Shown: positions 14,055 to 22,537 of the stretch, in pieces | Layout: each line of letters opens with the position of its first letter | Numbering within the stretch: the first letter of the stretch is position 1 | NCBI GenBank assembly: GCA_041493605.1 | Contig: JBGPZD010000003.1 | Coordinates: 1 to 45,190, forward strand | Direction: 5' to 3' | DNA: 45,190 nucleotides | From: Candidatus Methylomirabilia bacterium | GTDB taxonomy: Bacteria > Methylomirabilota > Methylomirabilia > Rokubacteriales > CSP1-6 | Position numbers and translations under genes: made by a program | Notes under the pieces: generated by a model | The model's input: the letters and a program-made list of their open reading frames with translations, nothing else | Databases searched by the model: none | Told to the model about the DNA's origin: nothing

Positions 14055-14429
14055 GTGATACCGGGGGAGATCTTTCCGGCGGCTTCCGACATCGTGGCCA
14101 ACGCGGGCCGCCGGACCGTCCAGCTCATGGTGGCCAACACAGGCGATCGGCCGGTGCAGATCGGCGCGCACTACCATTTCTTTGAGGTGAACAAGGCCCT
14201 CCGCTTCGATCGGGAGAAGGCCTTCGGGATGCGTCTGAACATTCCTTCGGGCACCACCATGCGCTTCGAGCCGGGGGACGAGCGCACCGTGACCCTGGTG
14301 GAGATCCTGGGCAAGAAGATCATGCGCGGGCTGAACGCCCTGACCGACGGTGACATGGCCTCTCCCGAGGTCCGCAAGCGGGCGTTGGCACAGGCCCGGG
14401 CCCGCGGCTTCAAAGGAGCGGGGGAATGA
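14055..14429 (+). CDS. ureB: urease subunit beta
   Basis: [29 protein letters not shown]. Confidence 0.97.
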
Positions 14430-16144
14430 GCCTCAAAATCGACCGCAAGAGCTACGCGGCGATGTTCGGCCCCACGGTCGGGGACCGCGTGCGCCTCGCC
14501 GATACCGACCTGATCATCGAGGTGGAGAAGGATTACGCGGTCTACGGCGAGGAGACGCGCTACGGGCCGGGGAAGGTGCTGCGCGACGGGCTGGGCCAGG
14601 CCCCCGACGCCACCTGGGAGGGCGGCGCCCTCGACCTGGTGATCTCCAACGTCATCATCCTGGACCACTGGGGGATCGTCAAGGCGGACATCGGGATCCG
14701 TGACGGTAAGATCGCCGGCATCGGCAAGGCCGGCAACCCGAACATCATGGAGGGAGTCACGCCCGGCATGGTGGTGGGCGCCGCCACCGAGGCCCTGGCC
14801 GGCGAGGGAATGATCGCCACGGCGGGCGGGATCGATTCCCACGTCCACTACATCTGCCCGCAGCAGGTCACCGAGGCCTTCGGCTCCGGCATCACCACCA
14901 TGATCGGGGGCGGCACCGGCCCGGCCACTGGCACCAACGCCACCACCTGCACCCCGGGCCCCTGGAACATCCACCGGATGTTGGAGGCGGCCGAAGAGTA
15001 CCCGATGAACTTCGGCTTCCAGGGCAAGGGGAACTCCTCCCTGCCGCAGGGGCTGCGGGAGCAGGCCGAGGCCGGCGCCATGGGGTTCAAGCTCCACGAG
15101 GACTGGGGGACCACCCCCGCCGCCATCGACTGCTGCCTGCGGGTGGCCGACGAGTACGACGTGCAGGTGACGATCCACACGGACACGCTGAACGAGACCG
15201 GCTTCGTGGAGGACACCATTGCCGCCATCGCCGGACGGAGCATTCATGCCTACCACGTGGAGGGCGCCGGCGGCGGCCACGCCCCCGACATCATCAAGAT
15301 CGTCTCTTACCCGAACGTCCTCACCTCCTCCACCAACCCGACCAGGCCGTACACCGTCAACACCGTGGAGGAGCACCTGGACATGCTGATGGTGTGCCAC
15401 CACCTGTCGCCCAAGATCCCCGAGGACATCGCCCAGGCCGAGGCCCGCATCCGCCCCGAGACCATCGCCGCCGAGGACATCCTCCACGACCTGGGCGCCA
15501 TAAGCATGATCGGGTCGGACTCGCAGGCCATGGGACGCGTCAGCGAGACCATCATCCGCACCTGGCAGACGGCCGACAAGATGAAGCGGCAGCGGGGCCG
15601 CCTCCCAGAGGAGCGGGGCGACAACGACAACGTGCGGGTCAAGCGCTACGTCGCCAAGTACACCGTCAACGTGGCCATCGCCCACGGGTTCGCGGAGCAT
15701 ATCGGCTCCCTGGAGGTGGGCAAGCTGGCCGACATCGTCCTCTTTAAGCCGAAGTTCTTCGGGGTGAAGCCCGACATGGTCATCAAGGGCGGGTTCATCA
15801 CCTATATGGCCATGGGCGATCCTGGCTCCACGATTCCAACCCCGCAGCCCGTCATCGGCCGCTATATGTGGGGCGGGATGGGCCGCGCCAAGCAGTCTGT
15901 CTCCATCTCCTTTGTCTCCCAGGCGGCTTACCAGGCCGGCGTCCACAAAAAGCTGGGGCTGCAGAAGCGGGTGATCCCCGTGCGCAACTGCCGCGCCCTG
16001 GGCAAGAAGGACATGATCCACAACACGGCCCTCCCCAAGGTGGACGTGGACCCAGAAACCTACGAGGTCTACGCGGACGGCCAGCTGATCACCTGCGAGC
16101 CGGCCAGCGTGCTGCCCTTGGCCCAGCGGTATTTCCTCTTCTAG
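14426..16144 (+). CDS. ureC: urease subunit alpha
   Basis: All Ni ligands are present ([39 protein letters not shown]), as are the flap MVCHHL and terminal PLAQRYFLF. Confidence 0.98.
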
Positions 16145-16162
16145 CGCGGGGCATCCTAACGC

Positions 16163-16705
16163 ATGATCGTCGTCGAAGCAGTCCTGGGCAACCTCGGCGA
16201 GGACGCGCGCCTTCGGGACCTGCACCGGCGCTGGCAGGCGGAGGGGTGCGCGGAGACCGTGGCCTTGACACCCCTGGACGCCCAGAAGGGCCGGCTCCGC
16301 ATCCAGACCGACAAGGGGACGCCCCTCGGGCTGAGCCTCGGGCGGGGCGCCTCCTTGCGGGACGGCGACGTCCTCTACCTGGACGAGGCGCAGCGGCGGA
16401 TCATCGTGGCGCGGCTCACGCCGGAGGAGGTGCTGGTGATCACCGTGCAGCCGGCCGTCTCCGCCGAGGAGCTCCTCCGCGTCGCCGTCCGGCTCGGCCA
16501 CGTTCTGGGGAACCAGCACTGGCCCGTGAAGGTCGAAGGCCTGTCGGTGTACGTCCCGGTCTCCGTGGACAAGCAGGTGATGCAAACGGTTCTGAAGACC
16601 TATGGCCTGCAGGGGATCACGTACCGCTTCGAGGAGGCGAGCGTGGGGGCCATCCCGCGGACCGTCCCGCACGACCACCCGCACCCCGATGGGCATCATC
16701 ACTGA
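16163..16705 (+). CDS. ureE: urease accessory Ni chaperone
   Basis: LRDGDVL, GHVLGNQHWP and a His-rich C-terminal tail. Confidence 0.9.
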   Translation: MIVVEAVLGNLGEDARLRDLHRRWQAEGCAETVALTPLDAQKGRLRIQTDKGTPLGLSLGRGASLRDGDVLYLDEAQRRIIVARLTPEEVLVITVQPAVSAEELLRVAVRLGHVLGNQHWPVKVEGLSVYVPVSVDKQVMQTVLKTYGLQGITYRFEEASVGAIPRTVPHDHPHPDGHHH

Positions 16706-17432
16706 GCCCGACCCCGTGCCCGGGGCCGCGGGGCCATCAGCCAGCGCCCCCGGCGCGGCGTTCCTGAGCGCCCTGCAGTTGTCCGACACGTTCTTCCCTA
16801 CCGGCCTGTACACGCTGTCCTACGGGTTCGAGGCGTTCGTCCAGGCGGGGCTGGCCTCCAAGGCCAACCTGGAGGCGCTGCTCCGGGACTACCTGGAGCA
16901 CGTCCTCGGGCCCTCCGACGGCGTGGCCCTCTCCCAGGCCCATTGCGCCGTCGAGGCGCAGGATTTAGCGCGCCTCCTGGAGATCGACCGCCGCCTCGGC
17001 GCCCTGAAGCTGGTCCGGGAGGCCCGCGAGGCCTCGCGGCGCGTCGGCCGGCGGATCCTGGCCACAGCGGTCACGCTCACCTCCCACCAGCTGCTGGCGG
17101 ACTACCGGGCCGCCGCGGACGGGGCGACTACCCCGGGCAACGCGGCGGTGGCCCTCGGCTCAGTGGCGGCTGCCCTTCGCATCCCGCGGCGGGAGGCCCT
17201 GCTGATCGAGCTCCACACCTTCACCACGAGCCTGCTCGGGGCCGCCATGCGCCTTATCCGGCTCGACCACGAAGAGGCCCAGGTTATCCTTGGCCGCGTG
17301 AAGCCCCTGATGCTGCGTGTGGCCGAGGAGAACATGGACCGGAGTGCGTCGGAGATGCGCGCCTTCGCTCCCCTCATCGACATCATGGCCATGGGGCACG
17401 AGCGGGCCTCCGTCCGCTTGTTCATCAGCTGA
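16689..17432 (+). CDS. ureF: urease accessory protein
   Basis: [20 protein letters not shown] and terminal [11 protein letters not shown]. Confidence 0.92.
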
Positions 17433-17443
17433 GGAGGACGCCC

Positions 17444-18085
17444 ATGGCGAAACGCATCCCACGCATCGGAATCGGCGGCCCGGTGGGCTCGGGGAAGACG
17501 GCCCTCATCGAGTGCCTCGTCCCCCGCTTGATGGCTGACGGATACAAGGTCATCGTGGTGACCAACGACATCGTCACGGTGGAGGACGCGCTCCACGTGA
17601 AGCGAGCCCTCGCCGGAATCCTGGAGCCGGAACGGATCCTGGGCGTCGAGACAGGGGCCTGCCCCCACACCGCCGTCCGCGAGGACCCGACCATGAACCT
17701 GGCCTTCGTCGAAGAGATGGAGACCCGCTTCCCGGATTCGGACCTCTTGTTCCTGGAGAGTGGAGGGGACAACCTCACCCTCACCTTCAGCCCGGCCCTG
17801 GTGGACTATTTCATCTACGTCATCGACGTGGCGGCCGGGGACAAGATCCCCCGCAAGAACGGACCAGGTATCACCCAATCCGACCTCCTGGTAATCAACA
17901 AGGTGGACCTCGCGCCCCACGTCGGGGCCAGCCTGGAGGTCATGGCGCGGGATTCCCAGAAAATGCGAGGCGCCAAGCCGTTCCTGTTCACCAACTGTAT
18001 GACGCGCGTCGGTATCGACGAGGTGGTGATCCTCATCAAGCGCGAGGTCCTGTTCGAGGAGGTGGAGCGGCAGGCTCAGGAGTAG
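17444..18085 (+). CDS. ureG: urease accessory GTPase
   Basis: [23 protein letters not shown] and NKVDLAP; GAGGAGG SD before ATG 17444. Confidence 0.96.
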
Positions 18086-18091
18086 CGCCCG

Positions 18092-18937
18092 GTGGGCATG
18101 GAGGGGGTGCTCAGGCTGGAATTCGCCTCCCGGGACGGCGTCACGGCGATCGCGGACCGGTACCAAGAGGCCCCGCTCCAGGTGCAGAAGGTTCTCTATC
18201 CGCACGCGGCCTTCCCCGGCATGGCCTGGGTGTACGTCCTTACCGTGACCGGCGGGATCGTCCAGGGGGACCGGCTCCAGACCGAGATCATCGCCCGGGA
18301 CGAGGCCCAAGTTCACGTGACCACCCCGGCCGCCACGAAGATCTACCGCTCGCCGGCAGCGCCCGCCTCGCACCGTCTGCACATTCAGGCCGCTGCGGGG
18401 AGCTACGTCGAATACCTCCCGGGGCCGGTGATCCCCTTTCGCGGCTCCCGCTTCCTGGAGGAAGTGACCTTGGTGGCCCATCCGAGGGCAACGTTGGTGT
18501 ACGGCAGTATCCTGAGCCCCGGCCGCGTGGCCATGGGCGAAGCCCACGCCTACGATCTCTACGCCTCGCGCGTCACGGCACAGCGGCCCGACGGCAGGCT
18601 GGAATTCCTGGACGTCACGCACCTGGCGCCGGCCACCATGAGCTCCACGCACCCCGGGCTGCTCGGCCGCTTCGATGCGCTGGGGACGCTCCACGTGTGG
18701 ACCGGCAGCATTCCCCCGCGCGATCTCAGCGACCTGCTGCATCGCGTCCTCCAGGACTCGGAAGACCTCCTCGGCGGCACCAGCGAACTCCCGTCCGGGC
18801 GGGGGGTCACCGTGAGAATGGTCGGGCCGCGAGTGGAGATTGTGGCCGCCGCCCTTGCGGCGGTCGTCGCCACGGCGCGGGCAGCCATCCTGGGAGTGGC
18901 CGGGTCGGCGAGCAGGGCGCCGGTAATCCCTGACTGA
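18092..18937 (+). CDS. ureD: urease accessory protein UreD/UreH
   Basis: GGIVQGD, TTPAATKIY and EYLPGPVIPF; last gene of the operon. Confidence 0.92.
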   Translation: MGMEGVLRLEFASRDGVTAIADRYQEAPLQVQKVLYPHAAFPGMAWVYVLTVTGGIVQGDRLQTEIIARDEAQVHVTTPAATKIYRSPAAPASHRLHIQAAAGSYVEYLPGPVIPFRGSRFLEEVTLVAHPRATLVYGSILSPGRVAMGEAHAYDLYASRVTAQRPDGRLEFLDVTHLAPATMSSTHPGLLGRFDALGTLHVWTGSIPPRDLSDLLHRVLQDSEDLLGGTSELPSGRGVTVRMVGPRVEIVAAALAAVVATARAAILGVAGSASRAPVIPD

Positions 18938-19331: not shown

Positions 19332-20468
19332 ATGGCGCCCTTCAGGACCGCTCTGTGCGATCTGCTCGGCATCGAGTATCCGGTCCTTCAGTCCGGGATG
19401 GGTGGAGTGGCGGGCCCCGAGCTGGTGGCCGAGGTGTCGCGCGCGGGCGGCCTCGGCATCCTGGCCGGGCTCAGGCTCACCGGCGACCAGCTGCGGGCGG
19501 GCATCCGGCGCGTGCGCGCGCTCACCGACCGGCCGTTCGGCGTCAACCTCTGGCTGCACACCGAGCTCATGCCGCCCGCCGACGTAAGCACGATCCCCGA
19601 GGGCACGGTGCGACAGGTCCAGGACACGCTCAACCGCTTCCGCACGAGGCTCGGCATCGCGACGAAGGAGGGGCGCCCGGAGGCGGTGCCCGATCTGATC
19701 CGCGAGGCCTTCGAGGTCATCCTGGACGAGCGCGTGCCGGTCTGGAGCATCGGTCTGGGCAACCCGGATTCGGTCTGGGTCCAGCGCTGCCACGAGCGCG
19801 GCGTCAAGATCGTGGCCATGGTCGCGACCGTAGACGACGCGCGGGCCGTCGCGGGCTCGGGCGTGGACGCCGTGATTGCTCAAGGGGCCGAAGCCGGCGG
19901 ACATCGCTCGACCTGGGTGAAGCCCGCCTCGCGCGAGGCGGCCCAGATCGGGGCCCTCGCGTTGGTGCCTCAGATCGTCGACGCGGTCAAGGTCCCGGTG
20001 ATCGCCGCCGGCGGGATCGCCGACGGCCGCGGCCTCGTGGCGGCGCTTGCGCTGGGGGCGCAGGGCGTGCTCCTGGGGACCCGCTTCGTCGCCACCCGGG
20101 AGGCCACGGCGGCCGAGTTCTGGAAGAAGAGCCTCCTCGAGCGCGGCAGCGAGGCGACCACGATCACCGACGCCGTCTCGGGGCTGTACGCGCGCGCGCT
20201 GCGCAATACGTACACCGAGGAGTACGCCGCCTCGGGCGCGCCCGTACTCCCGCCCCTCGTTCAATCCAACGCGGCCAAGGACATCTTCGACGCCGCGGTC
20301 GCCCAACAAAACGGCGAGTATTACCCGATGTGGTCGGGGCAGAGCGTGGGGTTGATCCACGACCTCCCGGGCGCCGGCGAAGTGGTGGAGGCGATCGTGC
20401 GAGAGGCGCGCGCCGTGCTGGAGCAGTTGCCGACGCGGGTGCGACTCAGCGACCCGCGCCGGGACTAG
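19332..20468 (+). CDS. nitronate monooxygenase / FabK-like flavin oxidoreductase
   Basis: Motifs PVLQSGMGG, PFGVNL, QGAEAGGH, PVIAAGGIADGRG, GTRF and WSGQSVGLI. Confidence 0.9.
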   Translation: MAPFRTALCDLLGIEYPVLQSGMGGVAGPELVAEVSRAGGLGILAGLRLTGDQLRAGIRRVRALTDRPFGVNLWLHTELMPPADVSTIPEGTVRQVQDTLNRFRTRLGIATKEGRPEAVPDLIREAFEVILDERVPVWSIGLGNPDSVWVQRCHERGVKIVAMVATVDDARAVAGSGVDAVIAQGAEAGGHRSTWVKPASREAAQIGALALVPQIVDAVKVPVIAAGGIADGRGLVAALALGAQGVLLGTRFVATREATAAEFWKKSLLERGSEATTITDAVSGLYARALRNTYTEEYAASGAPVLPPLVQSNAAKDIFDAAVAQQNGEYYPMWSGQSVGLIHDLPGAGEVVEAIVREARAVLEQLPTRVRLSDPRRD

Positions 20469-22081
20469 CTGCCGCCGATCAGCGCCTTGTACAGCTCGAC
20501 ACCGACCGGCGAGAGGTCGGAGCGGGTCTCGATCGGCAGCCCGGAGTTGGTCCACGCCCCGAGCCCGCCCTTGAGGATCCGCACGTCCTTGAATCCCAGC
20601 TTCCTCAGGTCTCGCGCCATCCTGGCGCTCGTGGCTTCGTCCGCTCAGGTGCAGTAGGCGACCACCGGGCGCGTCGTGTCGAGCTCGAGACCCGCCGTGC
20701 CGCTTTCGAGCTCCTCGGGGGCCAGGCGCACCGAGCCCGGGATCTTGATCGGCATGGCGTCATACGCCGCGGACTTGCGCGTGTCGAGGATGATCGGGTG
20801 CTTGCCCTCCTCGATGAGCTTCACCACTTCCGAGGGGCCGACCCGATAGCGGTTCCTCTGCCAGCGGATCAAGAACTGGGCGCCGTAGCCGCCGGCGCTC
20901 AGGAAGGTCACGCCGATGGCCACCCAGAACCAGGGGAAGGGCCGGGGCGGCGGGTTCTTCACCTTGTCCCGCGCCTCGCCGAGCATGCGCTTGACGTCGG
21001 GCTGGTTGGGCAGGATCTTCTCCGCGTCCTCGAAGCGCCGCGCGGCCCCCTTCCAGTCCTCGCCGAAGAAGGCGCGCAGGCCCGCAAACCAGATTTCGTT
21101 GAACTTGCTGGTGGCGGTGAGGTTGACCGGGGTGCCCGCCACGAAGGCATTCACGACATTCGACGCGATCATGAAGTTGAAGCCCTGGACGATGCTGCCC
21201 TCGGGCCCGGGCGCCAGCGACACGAAGGTGAGCACGCCCACGACGGCGCCCCTCTCGTCCACCGCCGGGCCGCCCGAGTTGCCCCAGGTCGCGGGGGCGT
21301 CCGTCTGGATCAGGGGGTTGTTGTTCTTGTCCTGCTTGAAACCGGAGATGGCGCCGTTGGTCACGGAGGCCTCGACCGTGGCCGACTGGTTCAGCAGCTC
21401 GTGGGAGAGCACCACGCCCGGGAAACCGATGATGTGGACGGGGTCGCCGATCTGCACCGTCTTGGAGTCGGCCAGCGGGAGCGCCGGGAAGTTTTCGCCC
21501 GGCACCTTGAGCAGCGCCAGATCACGCCCGGTCATCTCGCCGGCCTCAGCGCCCACCGGCGAGCTGTACTTTTTCACCTCGGCCTTGAGCCGGCCGCGGC
21601 TCGTGACGACGAAGACGCCGGGCTGCAGCGCCACCTTGGCCGTGGGCAACACCTGGTCGAGGAGCTTGCGCTTGGCGGCCTCCTCCAGGTCGGGCCGGTC
21701 ACCCGGCTGAAGCCCCATGCCTTTCAGGACCTTCGGTAGGCAGGCGGTCGACACCGCGCGCTGGGCCTGCTGGTTGACGAGCCACCGGGGCGTCTCGTGG
21801 GCCGGCTGGACCACGTGGCCGTTGGTGATCAGCCACCCGGCGGAATCGACGAACCAGCCCGTGCCGGTCTCCCGGAAGACGGGCGGCGTCACCTTGATCG
21901 GGCCGGCGCCGCAGTTGAGGGTGACCTCGGCGGTCACCTCGGCCACGACCAGCACGACGGCGGGCTTGGCGCGCAGCATGGCTTCCTGCACGGTGACGTT
22001 CCGCTGGGCGCCGGCCGTCGCGGGCAGGAGCGCGGCCAGGAGGAAGGCCCACGTCACTGGACGGCAGAAACGCAGTATCAT
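20465..22081 (-). CDS. putative selenoprotein: signal peptide + trypsin-like serine protease + TM helix + rhodanese domain (Sec at UGA 20645-20647)
   Basis: Protease triad TNGHVV / DLALLKV / GNSGGP. The rhodanese domain reads VVAYCT-TGA-ADEATSARMARDLRKLGFKDVRILKGGLGAW, in frame to TAG at 20465. Confidence 0.85.
20615..20647 (-). promoter_or_regulatory. bacterial SECIS-like hairpin after the in-frame UGA
   Basis: UGA + 16 nt + GCGCCA-GGA-UGGCGC stem-loop with a G-led apical loop. Confidence 0.6.
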
Positions 22082-22120
22082 AGGGCCACTGTCGGTCATT
22101 CTATACCAAAAGGAAAACCC

Positions 22121-22537
22121 ATGAGCCGCCAGATCGGGGAAGTGCCGACGCGGGAGTTCAAGGCTGGCGAGATTATCTTCCGGGAGGGCGACGACCCCAA
22201 GGGCGAGGCCTTCATGGTCCATATCGGCCAGGTGGAGGTCCGCAAGGCGGTCGGCGGCGAAGAGCGCCTGCTGCGGACGCTGGGCAAGGGCGAGCTGTTG
22301 GGGGAGCTGGCCCTCTTCCGGAGCGCCCCGCGCTCGGCCACGGCCGTGGCCGCCGAGGCTGTCACGCTCATGGTCATTCCCGCCAACCGCCTCGACCACA
22401 TGGTGCGGAGCAACCCGGCCCTGGCCGTGGCGCTGATCAAGGACCTCGCGAGCCGCATGCTGGCCGCCGAGGAGCGGGCGCGCGCGGCCGAGGACCGCGC
22501 CAAGGGCGGCGAGGCGGGCGGGGGCAAGAGCGGCTAG
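22121..22537 (+). CDS. stand-alone cyclic nucleotide-binding domain protein
   Basis: Motifs IIFREGD, GELLGELAL and PRSATAVA; AGGA SD. Confidence 0.88.
   Translation: MSRQIGEVPTREFKAGEIIFREGDDPKGEAFMVHIGQVEVRKAVGGEERLLRTLGKGELLGELALFRSAPRSATAVAAEAVTLMVIPANRLDHMVRSNPALAVALIKDLASRMLAAEERARAAEDRAKGGEAGGGKSG

Follow-up and report, generated by a model that had tools for sequence, protein, structure and literature searches.

The window analysed here is a stretch of 45,190 nucleotides (nt) from a Candidatus Methylomirabilia bacterium (Methylomirabilota, Rokubacteriales, CSP1-6; GenBank assembly GCA_041493605.1, contig JBGPZD010000003.1, positions 1 to 45,190 of the forward strand). It carries, on the minus strand, a gene predicted to encode a selenoprotein in which a signal peptide, an HtrA-like protease domain, a transmembrane (TM) helix and a rhodanese domain with a Cys-x-selenocysteine (Cys-x-Sec) motif follow one another. 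All coordinates are window positions, and the features are collected in Table 1. From the ATG at 22081, 478 codons including the start lead up to codon 479, a TGA at 20645-20647; a second possible ATG lies six codons upstream, at 22099. Past the TGA the frame continues with 59 sense codons (...VVAYCT-TGA-ADEATSARMARDLRKLGFKDVRILKGGLGAWTNSGLP...) up to the TAG, and the Pfam Rhodanese match runs across the TGA codon. A preliminary description, made from the sequence alone, had held that these 59 in-frame codons complete a rhodanese, that a GCGCCA-GGA-TGGCGC hairpin of the selenocysteine insertion sequence (SECIS) type lies 16 nt past the TGA, and that a gene for a cyclic nucleotide monophosphate (cNMP)-binding protein diverges about 40 nt away. 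The frame as read and the Pfam match spanning the TGA bear out the first of these statements, and both the hairpin and the divergent gene were located where they had been placed.

Table 1. Features of the predicted selenoprotein gene and its divergent neighbour (window positions)
Feature	Positions	Strand	Description
Predicted selenoprotein gene, whole	20465..22081	-	538 codons with the TGA read through; TAG stop at 20465-20467
Signal peptide, probable	22007..22081	-	Residues 1-25, MILRFCRPVTWAFLLAALLPATAGA/Q; most hydrophobic 19-residue window of the protein
HtrA-type (S1C-like) protease domain	21233..21865	-	Residues 73-283; Pfam Trypsin_2, E 2.5e-25
Helical region	20957..21163	-	Residues ~307-375, where HtrA proteases have PDZ; helices 307-314, 326-339, 343-356 and 361-375 in the AlphaFold2 (AF2) model
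TM helix	20852..20932	-	Residues ~384-410; AF2 helix 384-410, hydropathy peak 387
Rhodanese domain, predicted cytoplasmic	20546..20836	-	Residues 416-512, loop Cys477-Thr478-Sec479 (predicted Sec); Pfam PF00581, E 1.5e-11
SECIS-type hairpin	20614..20628	-	GCGCC stem with 5-nt loop AGGAU (or 6-bp stem with GGA loop), starting 16 nt past the UGA
Divergent cNMP-binding gene	22121..22537	+	138 residues, single domain; Pfam cNMP_binding, E 2.3e-22; 39 nt from the ATG

Conservation of the UGA codon and its hairpin

Homologues were sought by a six-frame search of 60 related genomes, 36 of them others of the same family and 24 from four other families of the order. Of the 36 other genomes of the family, 33 have full-length homologues, often in two copies (31/34 once the unpublished G010 and G024 are set aside); for the order's four other families, 24 genomes in all, the search gave single-domain matches only and no full-length fusion. 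A first set of 40 aligned loci, which excludes unpublished genomes as well as some 15 matches that ranked lower or were fragments, has TGA at codon 479 in 18 loci and Ser (15), Thr (6) or Ala (1) in the other 22. The second set comprises the 80 best loci from a scan of species-representative genomes and partly overlaps the first; 78 of these were parsed, the two unparsed ones lying on the same contigs as L058 and L059, both TGA forms in the first set. Here codon 479 is TGA in 52/78 loci, the other 26 having Ser (13), Cys (7, as TGC), Thr (3), Ala (2) or Glu (1). Among the best 120 matches in the protein database, 12 end at ...AYCT (477-480 amino acids) and have lost the rhodanese annotation, and residue 479 of the 108 full-length proteins is Ser (58), Cys (18), Thr (16), Asp (10), Glu (4) or Ala (2). 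Taken together, Ser, Thr, Asp, Glu and Ala are commoner than Cys at this position. Relatives of the YCxCP type, to which the preliminary description had pointed, were recovered as YC[ST]CPDE..TSA, with Cys replacing Sec, in 18/108 full-length database proteins and 7/78 parsed loci, and the alternation it had suggested looking for is found at the exact codon, where UGA alternates with Cys and other residues across many genomes.

Over 40 post-TGA codons the ratio of nonsynonymous to synonymous change (pN/pS) was 0.32 (51 comparisons of the window with other TGA forms, the pairs not being independent). The post-TGA stretch contained no in-frame stop among 52 sequences, compared with 70 and 9 in the two alternative frames. 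TGA also serves as the final stop of many of these genes, and the genome therefore does not treat the codon as sense in general. In a quick maximum-likelihood tree of the 40 loci (unrooted, midpoint-drawn, with support from the Shimodaira-Hasegawa-like approximate likelihood ratio test), TGA forms occur in all major branches, with at least 4-5 state changes. Because all TGA forms, and also the DedA fusions described below, have one common hairpin, Sec would appear to be ancestral and to have been lost repeatedly.

The preliminary description had also named an error in the codon itself as a check. Contigs from two public DNA runs, spanning 20559-21202 and 20580-20968, agree with the TGA without any difference at that codon, and may stem from the source sample or campaign. 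Contigs from RNA libraries (X15, X16, sediment metatranscriptomes) match the gene body at 90-99% likeness, examples of 433 and 656 nt having 19 and 18 differences (about 96% likeness, positions 20400-22200). Close relatives of the gene may therefore be transcribed; DNA carry-over may also account for the RNA-library contigs.

The hairpin folds in both the minimum free energy and the centroid structures. In a folding-energy test, the 76-nt stretch was no more stable than its shuffles (z 0.24), which says nothing for a SECIS by itself, and because of this value support for the hairpin is taken from conservation and not from folding energy. The GCGCC-N5-GGCGC stem at +16 is present in 18/18 and 52/52 TGA forms of the first and second sets, compared with 2/22 and 5/26 of their non-TGA relatives, and the second loop base is G in all 18 TGA forms of the first set. 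Within that set, the Ala codon at +7 is GCC in 18/18 TGA forms (7/13 others), the Ala codon at +10 is GCG in 18/18 (7/12 others) and the Val codon at +9 is GTG in 12/12 (9/19 others), and the synonymous sites of the stem are frozen in the TGA forms only. The criteria of Zhang and Gladyshev for bacterial SECIS elements reportedly include a stem-loop shortly past the UGA and a G in the apical loop; the hairpin here has a 5-bp GC stem, a G in the loop and short spacing.

Some loci without TGA have nevertheless kept the structure. L112 (Rokubacteria CSP1-6, LDXP01000084.1) has GAA (Glu) at the Sec codon, yet its hairpin is identical to that of the window (GCGCC-AGGAT-GGCGC), and in L050/L132 both Cys and Sec are gone (YGSA) with the stem still kept. 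These loci look like recent Sec losses with a relic SECIS.

Components for Sec synthesis and insertion, whose presence the preliminary description had proposed to check, were all detected in the source genome (2.4 Mb, 184 contigs, estimated 79% complete). The selD match scored 345 bits, above the cut-off, and contains one in-frame TGA (motif ...CAGUASK...; G000:C97:6236-7174, L001), followed by an 8-bp hairpin; the TGA stands at what we take to be the usual Sec/Cys site of SelD. Matches to selA and tRNA-Sec (selC) scored 582 and 72.6 bits, respectively, and for selB the match covered model positions 1-165 before the contig broke off (217 bits, short of the cut-off of 242). A single contig (G000:C131:3761-7147), whose end falls within selB, carries the tRNA-Sec and selA as well as the beginning of selB. 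The same genome holds a second protease-TM-rhodanese gene (G000:C173:7799-9328, minus strand; L041), 63% identical to that of the window, with the same TGA, the motif AYCTUKDE, the same hairpin stem and a score of 82.2 bits against the NCBIfam model NF041203, which is introduced below; no cNMP gene was found beside this copy within 300-nt flanks.

TGA conservation, hairpin, selection on the tail, machinery and DNA contigs combined exclude a private nonsense mutation or a sequencing error. On this comparative evidence, the gene very probably encodes one selenoprotein of 538 residues, with UGA 479 decoded as Sec with the help of the hairpin 16 nt downstream.

Protease half, membrane segment and rhodanese loop

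The domain order given in the preliminary description (signal peptide, HtrA-like protease, TM helix, C-x-Sec rhodanese) is the one on which Pfam, AF2, Foldseek, hydropathy and invariant residues agree. The AF2 model has a mean predicted local distance difference test score (pLDDT) of 82. The signal peptide and its cleavage site were judged by eye plus hydropathy, and AF2 places a helix at residues 3-18 in this region with low pLDDT. In the protease domain, the catalytic residues His89, Asp187 and Ser269 (GNSGGP), as well as Cys57 and Cys114, are invariant among 56 aligned family members; the two cysteines likely form a periplasmic disulfide. The best matches of the model in the PDB, obtained with Foldseek, were DegQ, DegS, DegP and HtrA1 (E about 1e-15, ~20% identity). 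The usual definition of HtrA (MEROPS S1C) includes one or more C-terminal PDZ domains. No PDZ domain was found by Pfam (E up to 0.01), and no Pfam family matched the helical region 307-375. Because a PDZ domain is missing and residues 307-375 are helical instead, the protein has an HtrA-like protease domain and is not, by that definition, a canonical HtrA protein.

The TM helix is the only internal hydrophobic span and is followed by the juxtamembrane motif RWQRNRYR, in which W407, N410, R411 and R413 are invariant among the 56 family members. Sequence and model together suggest a single-pass membrane protein with a cleavable signal peptide, the protease outside, one TM helix and the rhodanese in the cytoplasm.

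The rhodanese match to PF00581 scored 45 bits (gathering cut-off 22.2). Y476, C477, E482 and S485 are invariant among the 56 sequences, Cys477 thus in 56/56, and Cys477 is present in 37/40 loci of the first set. The Tyr-Cys-x-Sec motif is present as AYCTU (residues 475-479). The best rhodanese-type NCBIfam model for this protein, next after TIGR02037, is NF041203 (rhodanese_LYCAU), which matched residues 427-520 with 73.2 bits over model positions 35-126, and with 69.6 bits on DNA. The score lies below the curated cut-off of 115 bits because the module is fused and diverged. By motif and profile match, the Sec-bearing module belongs with the catalogued CxU/LYCAU Sec-rhodanese type. The statement in the preliminary description that Sec-rhodaneses exist was correct, the Cys-x-Sec rhodanese being a catalogued type of predicted selenoprotein (NF041203). 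The CxU form is said to trace to Kryukov and Gladyshev in 2004. A rhodanese-like selenoprotein 'form 3', CxU, stands in tables of predicted prokaryotic selenoproteins (PMC13188914, PMC9312934), and a passage on Olavius symbionts gives a UxU variant of a rhodanese-related sulfurtransferase selenoprotein family (PMC1976440); if that variant is of the CxU family, positions 477 and 479 would both be redox-relevant.

In the AF2 model, the strand 473-476 ends at Tyr476 and is followed by a six-residue loop (477-482) and a helix. The canonical geometry of a rhodanese has the catalytic Cys directly after the central strand, then a six-residue loop and a helix. As modelled, Cys477 would occupy the catalytic place and Sec479 loop position +2.

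cNMP-binding partner, DedA fusions and the proposed role

The cNMP gene is the divergent neighbour in 5/40 loci of the first set and 37/80 of the second, and is kept irrespective of which residue (Sec, Cys, Ser, Thr or Ala) stands at position 479. A different branch has the same cNMP domain fused behind the rhodanese (19/40 and 4/80 loci; Pfam-confirmed for L027, L032 and P0092). A single Sec version with all four modules was seen, L032/L128 (G025:C151), in which such a cNMP fusion forms the C-terminus. Around residue 77 the reading frame of L032 is shifted, through faulty assembly or because the gene is decaying. Because the domain is fused in one gene and the neighbour of another, we infer that the cNMP protein and the rhodanese module are physically or functionally associated.

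For the rhodanese loop we propose that Cys477 would be the canonical persulfide carrier and Sec479 a second, more reactive nucleophile that could form a selenenylsulfide (or S-S-Se) bridge with Cys477, the module then being a redox or sulfane-sulfur (perhaps selenium) transfer or sensing unit; we hold this to be moderately likely. The module would work with the cNMP-binding protein as the regulatory end of the molecule, and this end would determine, from the other side of the membrane, how active the periplasmic protease is or how it assembles. That rhodanese and cNMP partner act on the protease in this manner is put forward tentatively, as a plausible but rather doubtful step. In its fullest form, the proposal describes an 'inside-out' signalling protease, in which a Cys-x-Sec selenenylsulfide switch, read with the cNMP-binding partner, controls an HtrA-type protease across the membrane, and in this form we consider it unlikely. 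If true, the intracellular redox or sulfur state and the second-messenger level would decide periplasmic degradation, and selenium chemistry as the sensor of a transmembrane protease would be without described precedent.

A like module was found on a different partner. Where related genomes gave short rhodanese matches with a TGA, these did not come from free-standing proteins: at 10/10 loci examined, the match forms the C-terminus of a DedA/VTT membrane protein, and such fusions (L067-L076, L157; e.g. G006:C1, L157 172-1125, minus strand) occur in many genomes of the order. One was verified as VTT_dom plus Rhodanese, with 76.9 bits against NF041203. The DedA fusions have LYC[TS]UP[NS]EA[ST]SA, and most have GCGCC-N5-GGCGC 16 nt past the TGA, L067 and L068 having a variant stem. 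Their occurrence shows a unit of TM segment, Cys-x-Sec rhodanese and embedded SECIS that apparently moves as a whole between membrane proteins, and they are probably a second, unannotated family of fusion selenoproteins. Fusions of DedA (COG0586) with rhodanese are noted in PMC10127716, where their connection is called unclear in a passage that leaves selenocysteine unmentioned.

Several observations weigh against decoding as Sec or against the proposed role. RNAalifold found no covariation in the hairpin, all 5 pairs being invariant, and no RNA-library contig bridged the UGA with 31 letters on each side in one clean record; selB, moreover, was seen as its N-terminus only. The positive-inside rule is uninformative, with 4 Lys/Arg on either flank of the TM helix, and the topology is accordingly deduced from the signal peptide, from the usual location of HtrA proteases outside the cytoplasm and from the cNMP domain of the paralogues, which is taken as cytoplasmic. 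Alignments to solved rhodaneses disagree on the catalytic Cys, which falls on residue 479 with 1yt8 and 6mxv but on residue 477 with 1qxn. Residue 479 is Ser, Thr, Asp, Glu or Ala in about one third of the relatives; since non-redox residues replace Sec this often, its role would be dispensable for part of the family's function, and so frequent a replacement is unusual for a selenoprotein. Lastly, the same Cys-x-Sec module on an unrelated DedA protein fits a self-contained tethered enzyme no less well than a regulator of the protease.

This last observation leads to the alternative that Sec is real and the rhodanese a self-contained, membrane-tethered sulfur or selenium transferase, for which protease or DedA protein would provide anchoring or co-localisation with no signal passing between the halves. 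The module's movement between membrane proteins is the main argument for a rhodanese acting alone at the membrane face: a like motif and, by eye, a juxtamembrane QRxR[FY] stand behind DedA/VTT in 10/10 loci, most of them with the same hairpin, NF041203 is only 126 positions long, which suggests stand-alone occurrence, and the role of the DedA-rhodanese fusions is left unclear in the passage of PMC10127716 that notes them. Retention of the protease-rhodanese fusion in 33/36 other genomes of the family, often twice, argues in the other direction, as does its further joining, by fusion or as divergent neighbour, to a cNMP domain, a typical regulatory module; and Ser, Thr, Asp, Glu or Ala at 479 in many members fits a sensor or scaffold better than a selenium enzyme. 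We regard such an independent transferase as a serious possibility, though some way short of probable.

Bacterial Sec insertion competes with termination, and the UGA could accordingly be a selenium-dependent switch, yielding the full protein with selenium and otherwise a 478-residue protease with a broken rhodanese, both of them biologically relevant. Such a switch would suit a UGA that lies inside the fold, where the stopped product would lose the last helix-strand elements of the AF2 model, and the many replacements of Sec by non-redox residues imply that the protease half can work without Sec chemistry; however, no sequence feature favours a truncated product with a function, purifying selection acts on the part after the UGA and half a rhodanese fold is likely unstable, and we think the switch quite improbable. 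If the TGA were instead an ordinary stop, through nonsense mutation, pseudogene formation or a mistake in assembly or sequencing, translation would not extend into the 59 codons, as public gene callers have it that end the protein there (12/120 best database matches at ...AYCT), and the unremarkable local folding energy would be in keeping with this. Against it, the TGA is found in 52/78 loci of different species and in both copies in the genome, the hairpin is invariant in TGA forms only, a pN/pS of 0.32 goes together with the lack of in-frame stops, the Sec machinery is present and the TGA recurs in DNA contigs from two runs, and an ordinary stop is accordingly extremely improbable. Taken as a whole, the explanation of the locus given here, in which the selenoprotein is firmer than the role proposed for its rhodanese and cNMP partner, is considered likely.

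Distribution, novelty and comparison with known systems

The taxon labels of the 80 best loci comprise 65 Rokubacteria/Rokuibacteriota/Methylomirabilota, 4 'uncultured bacterium' and 11 of other phyla, the last from one series of metagenome-assembled genomes (MAGs). The other-phylum labels are doubtful, because the genome collection assigns at least 2 of the 11 (L107, L132) to the same family as the window, and the fusion was seen only in Rokubacteria/Methylomirabilota.

In the window, a urease gene set (ureC alpha subunit, ureF, ureG, ureD) at 14426-18937 (+) is followed by a nitronate monooxygenase gene at 19332-20468 (+), which is convergent with the predicted selenoprotein gene and whose stop overlaps its 3' end by 4 nt. 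No sulfur or selenium link was seen among these and the other window neighbours (ureC, ureF, ureG, ureD, nitronate monooxygenase, FAD oxidoreductase, TPR/SlipAM, Exo_endo_phos), of which only the nitronate monooxygenase gene also adjoins the gene in the two closest relatives.

The preliminary description had called the architecture one not known to be described. This holds in so far as our literature search turned up no publication on a fusion of protease and rhodanese, with Sec or without, with supplementary catalogue tables, which could list the fusion, lying outside that search; it does not hold for the parts, since the Cys-x-Sec rhodanese is catalogued and the non-Sec members are auto-annotated by the Joint Genome Institute (JGI) as 'S1-C subfamily serine protease/rhodanese-related sulfurtransferase'. 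The words rhodanese, protease, peptidase, trypsin and DedA do not occur in the main text of the deep-Sep paper (PMC12013277). As far as seen, the fusion of signal peptide, PDZ-less HtrA-like protease, TM helix and Cys-x-Sec rhodanese seems to be undescribed in print, and so do its cNMP partner and the Sec/Cys/Ser/Thr/Asp/Glu/Ala series at 479 beside a nearly invariant Cys477.

The gene would represent a selenoprotein that is widespread, and systematically mis-annotated, in a major uncultured phylum of soil and groundwater. Selenoproteome counts for Methylomirabilota, of which one MAG reportedly has 63 selenoproteins (Deng et al., 2026), would then be low by one to two genes per genome. The natural series of residues at one loop position could show what Sec adds to a rhodanese loop, and an HtrA-type protease without a PDZ sensor, but with cytoplasmic rhodanese and cNMP modules, hints at periplasmic proteolysis regulated from inside the cell.

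Among known systems, DegS and the HtrA (S1C) proteases have the trypsin fold and the His-Asp-Ser triad in common with this protein, and DegS has an inner-membrane anchor with its protease on the periplasmic side, as proposed here. The present protein differs from them in the absence of PDZ, with a helical region of ~70 residues in its place, and in an anchor that is C-terminal to the protease and runs on into cytoplasmic domains; against the DegP/HtrA model TIGR02037 it reaches 74 bits (E 1e-20), the cut-off being 416. In E. coli, a rhodanese is likewise coupled to the membrane (the membrane rhodanese YgaP) or to a protease within it (the glpE-glpG operon, rhodanese and rhomboid protease), but neither is known to have Sec, an HtrA domain or a cNMP partner, the resemblance being a lead only. 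The trypsin-like serine protease selenoproteins in Global Ocean Sampling (GOS) data are likewise protease-related predicted Sec proteins, but there Sec replaces Cys inside the trypsin domain. In the MucD-like selenoproteins, as listed, Sec stands in a CxxU motif and not in a rhodanese domain; we infer from a similar place in a later table that this family is the Trx7/PDZ family NF041199. Compared with the catalogued NF041203, a model of ~126 positions, the module here forms the C-terminal quarter of a 538-residue protease fusion. The DedA (VTT) fusions, finally, have the same Cys-x-Sec rhodanese after a membrane segment, and differ in that the partner is a multi-pass DedA protein and not a secreted protease.

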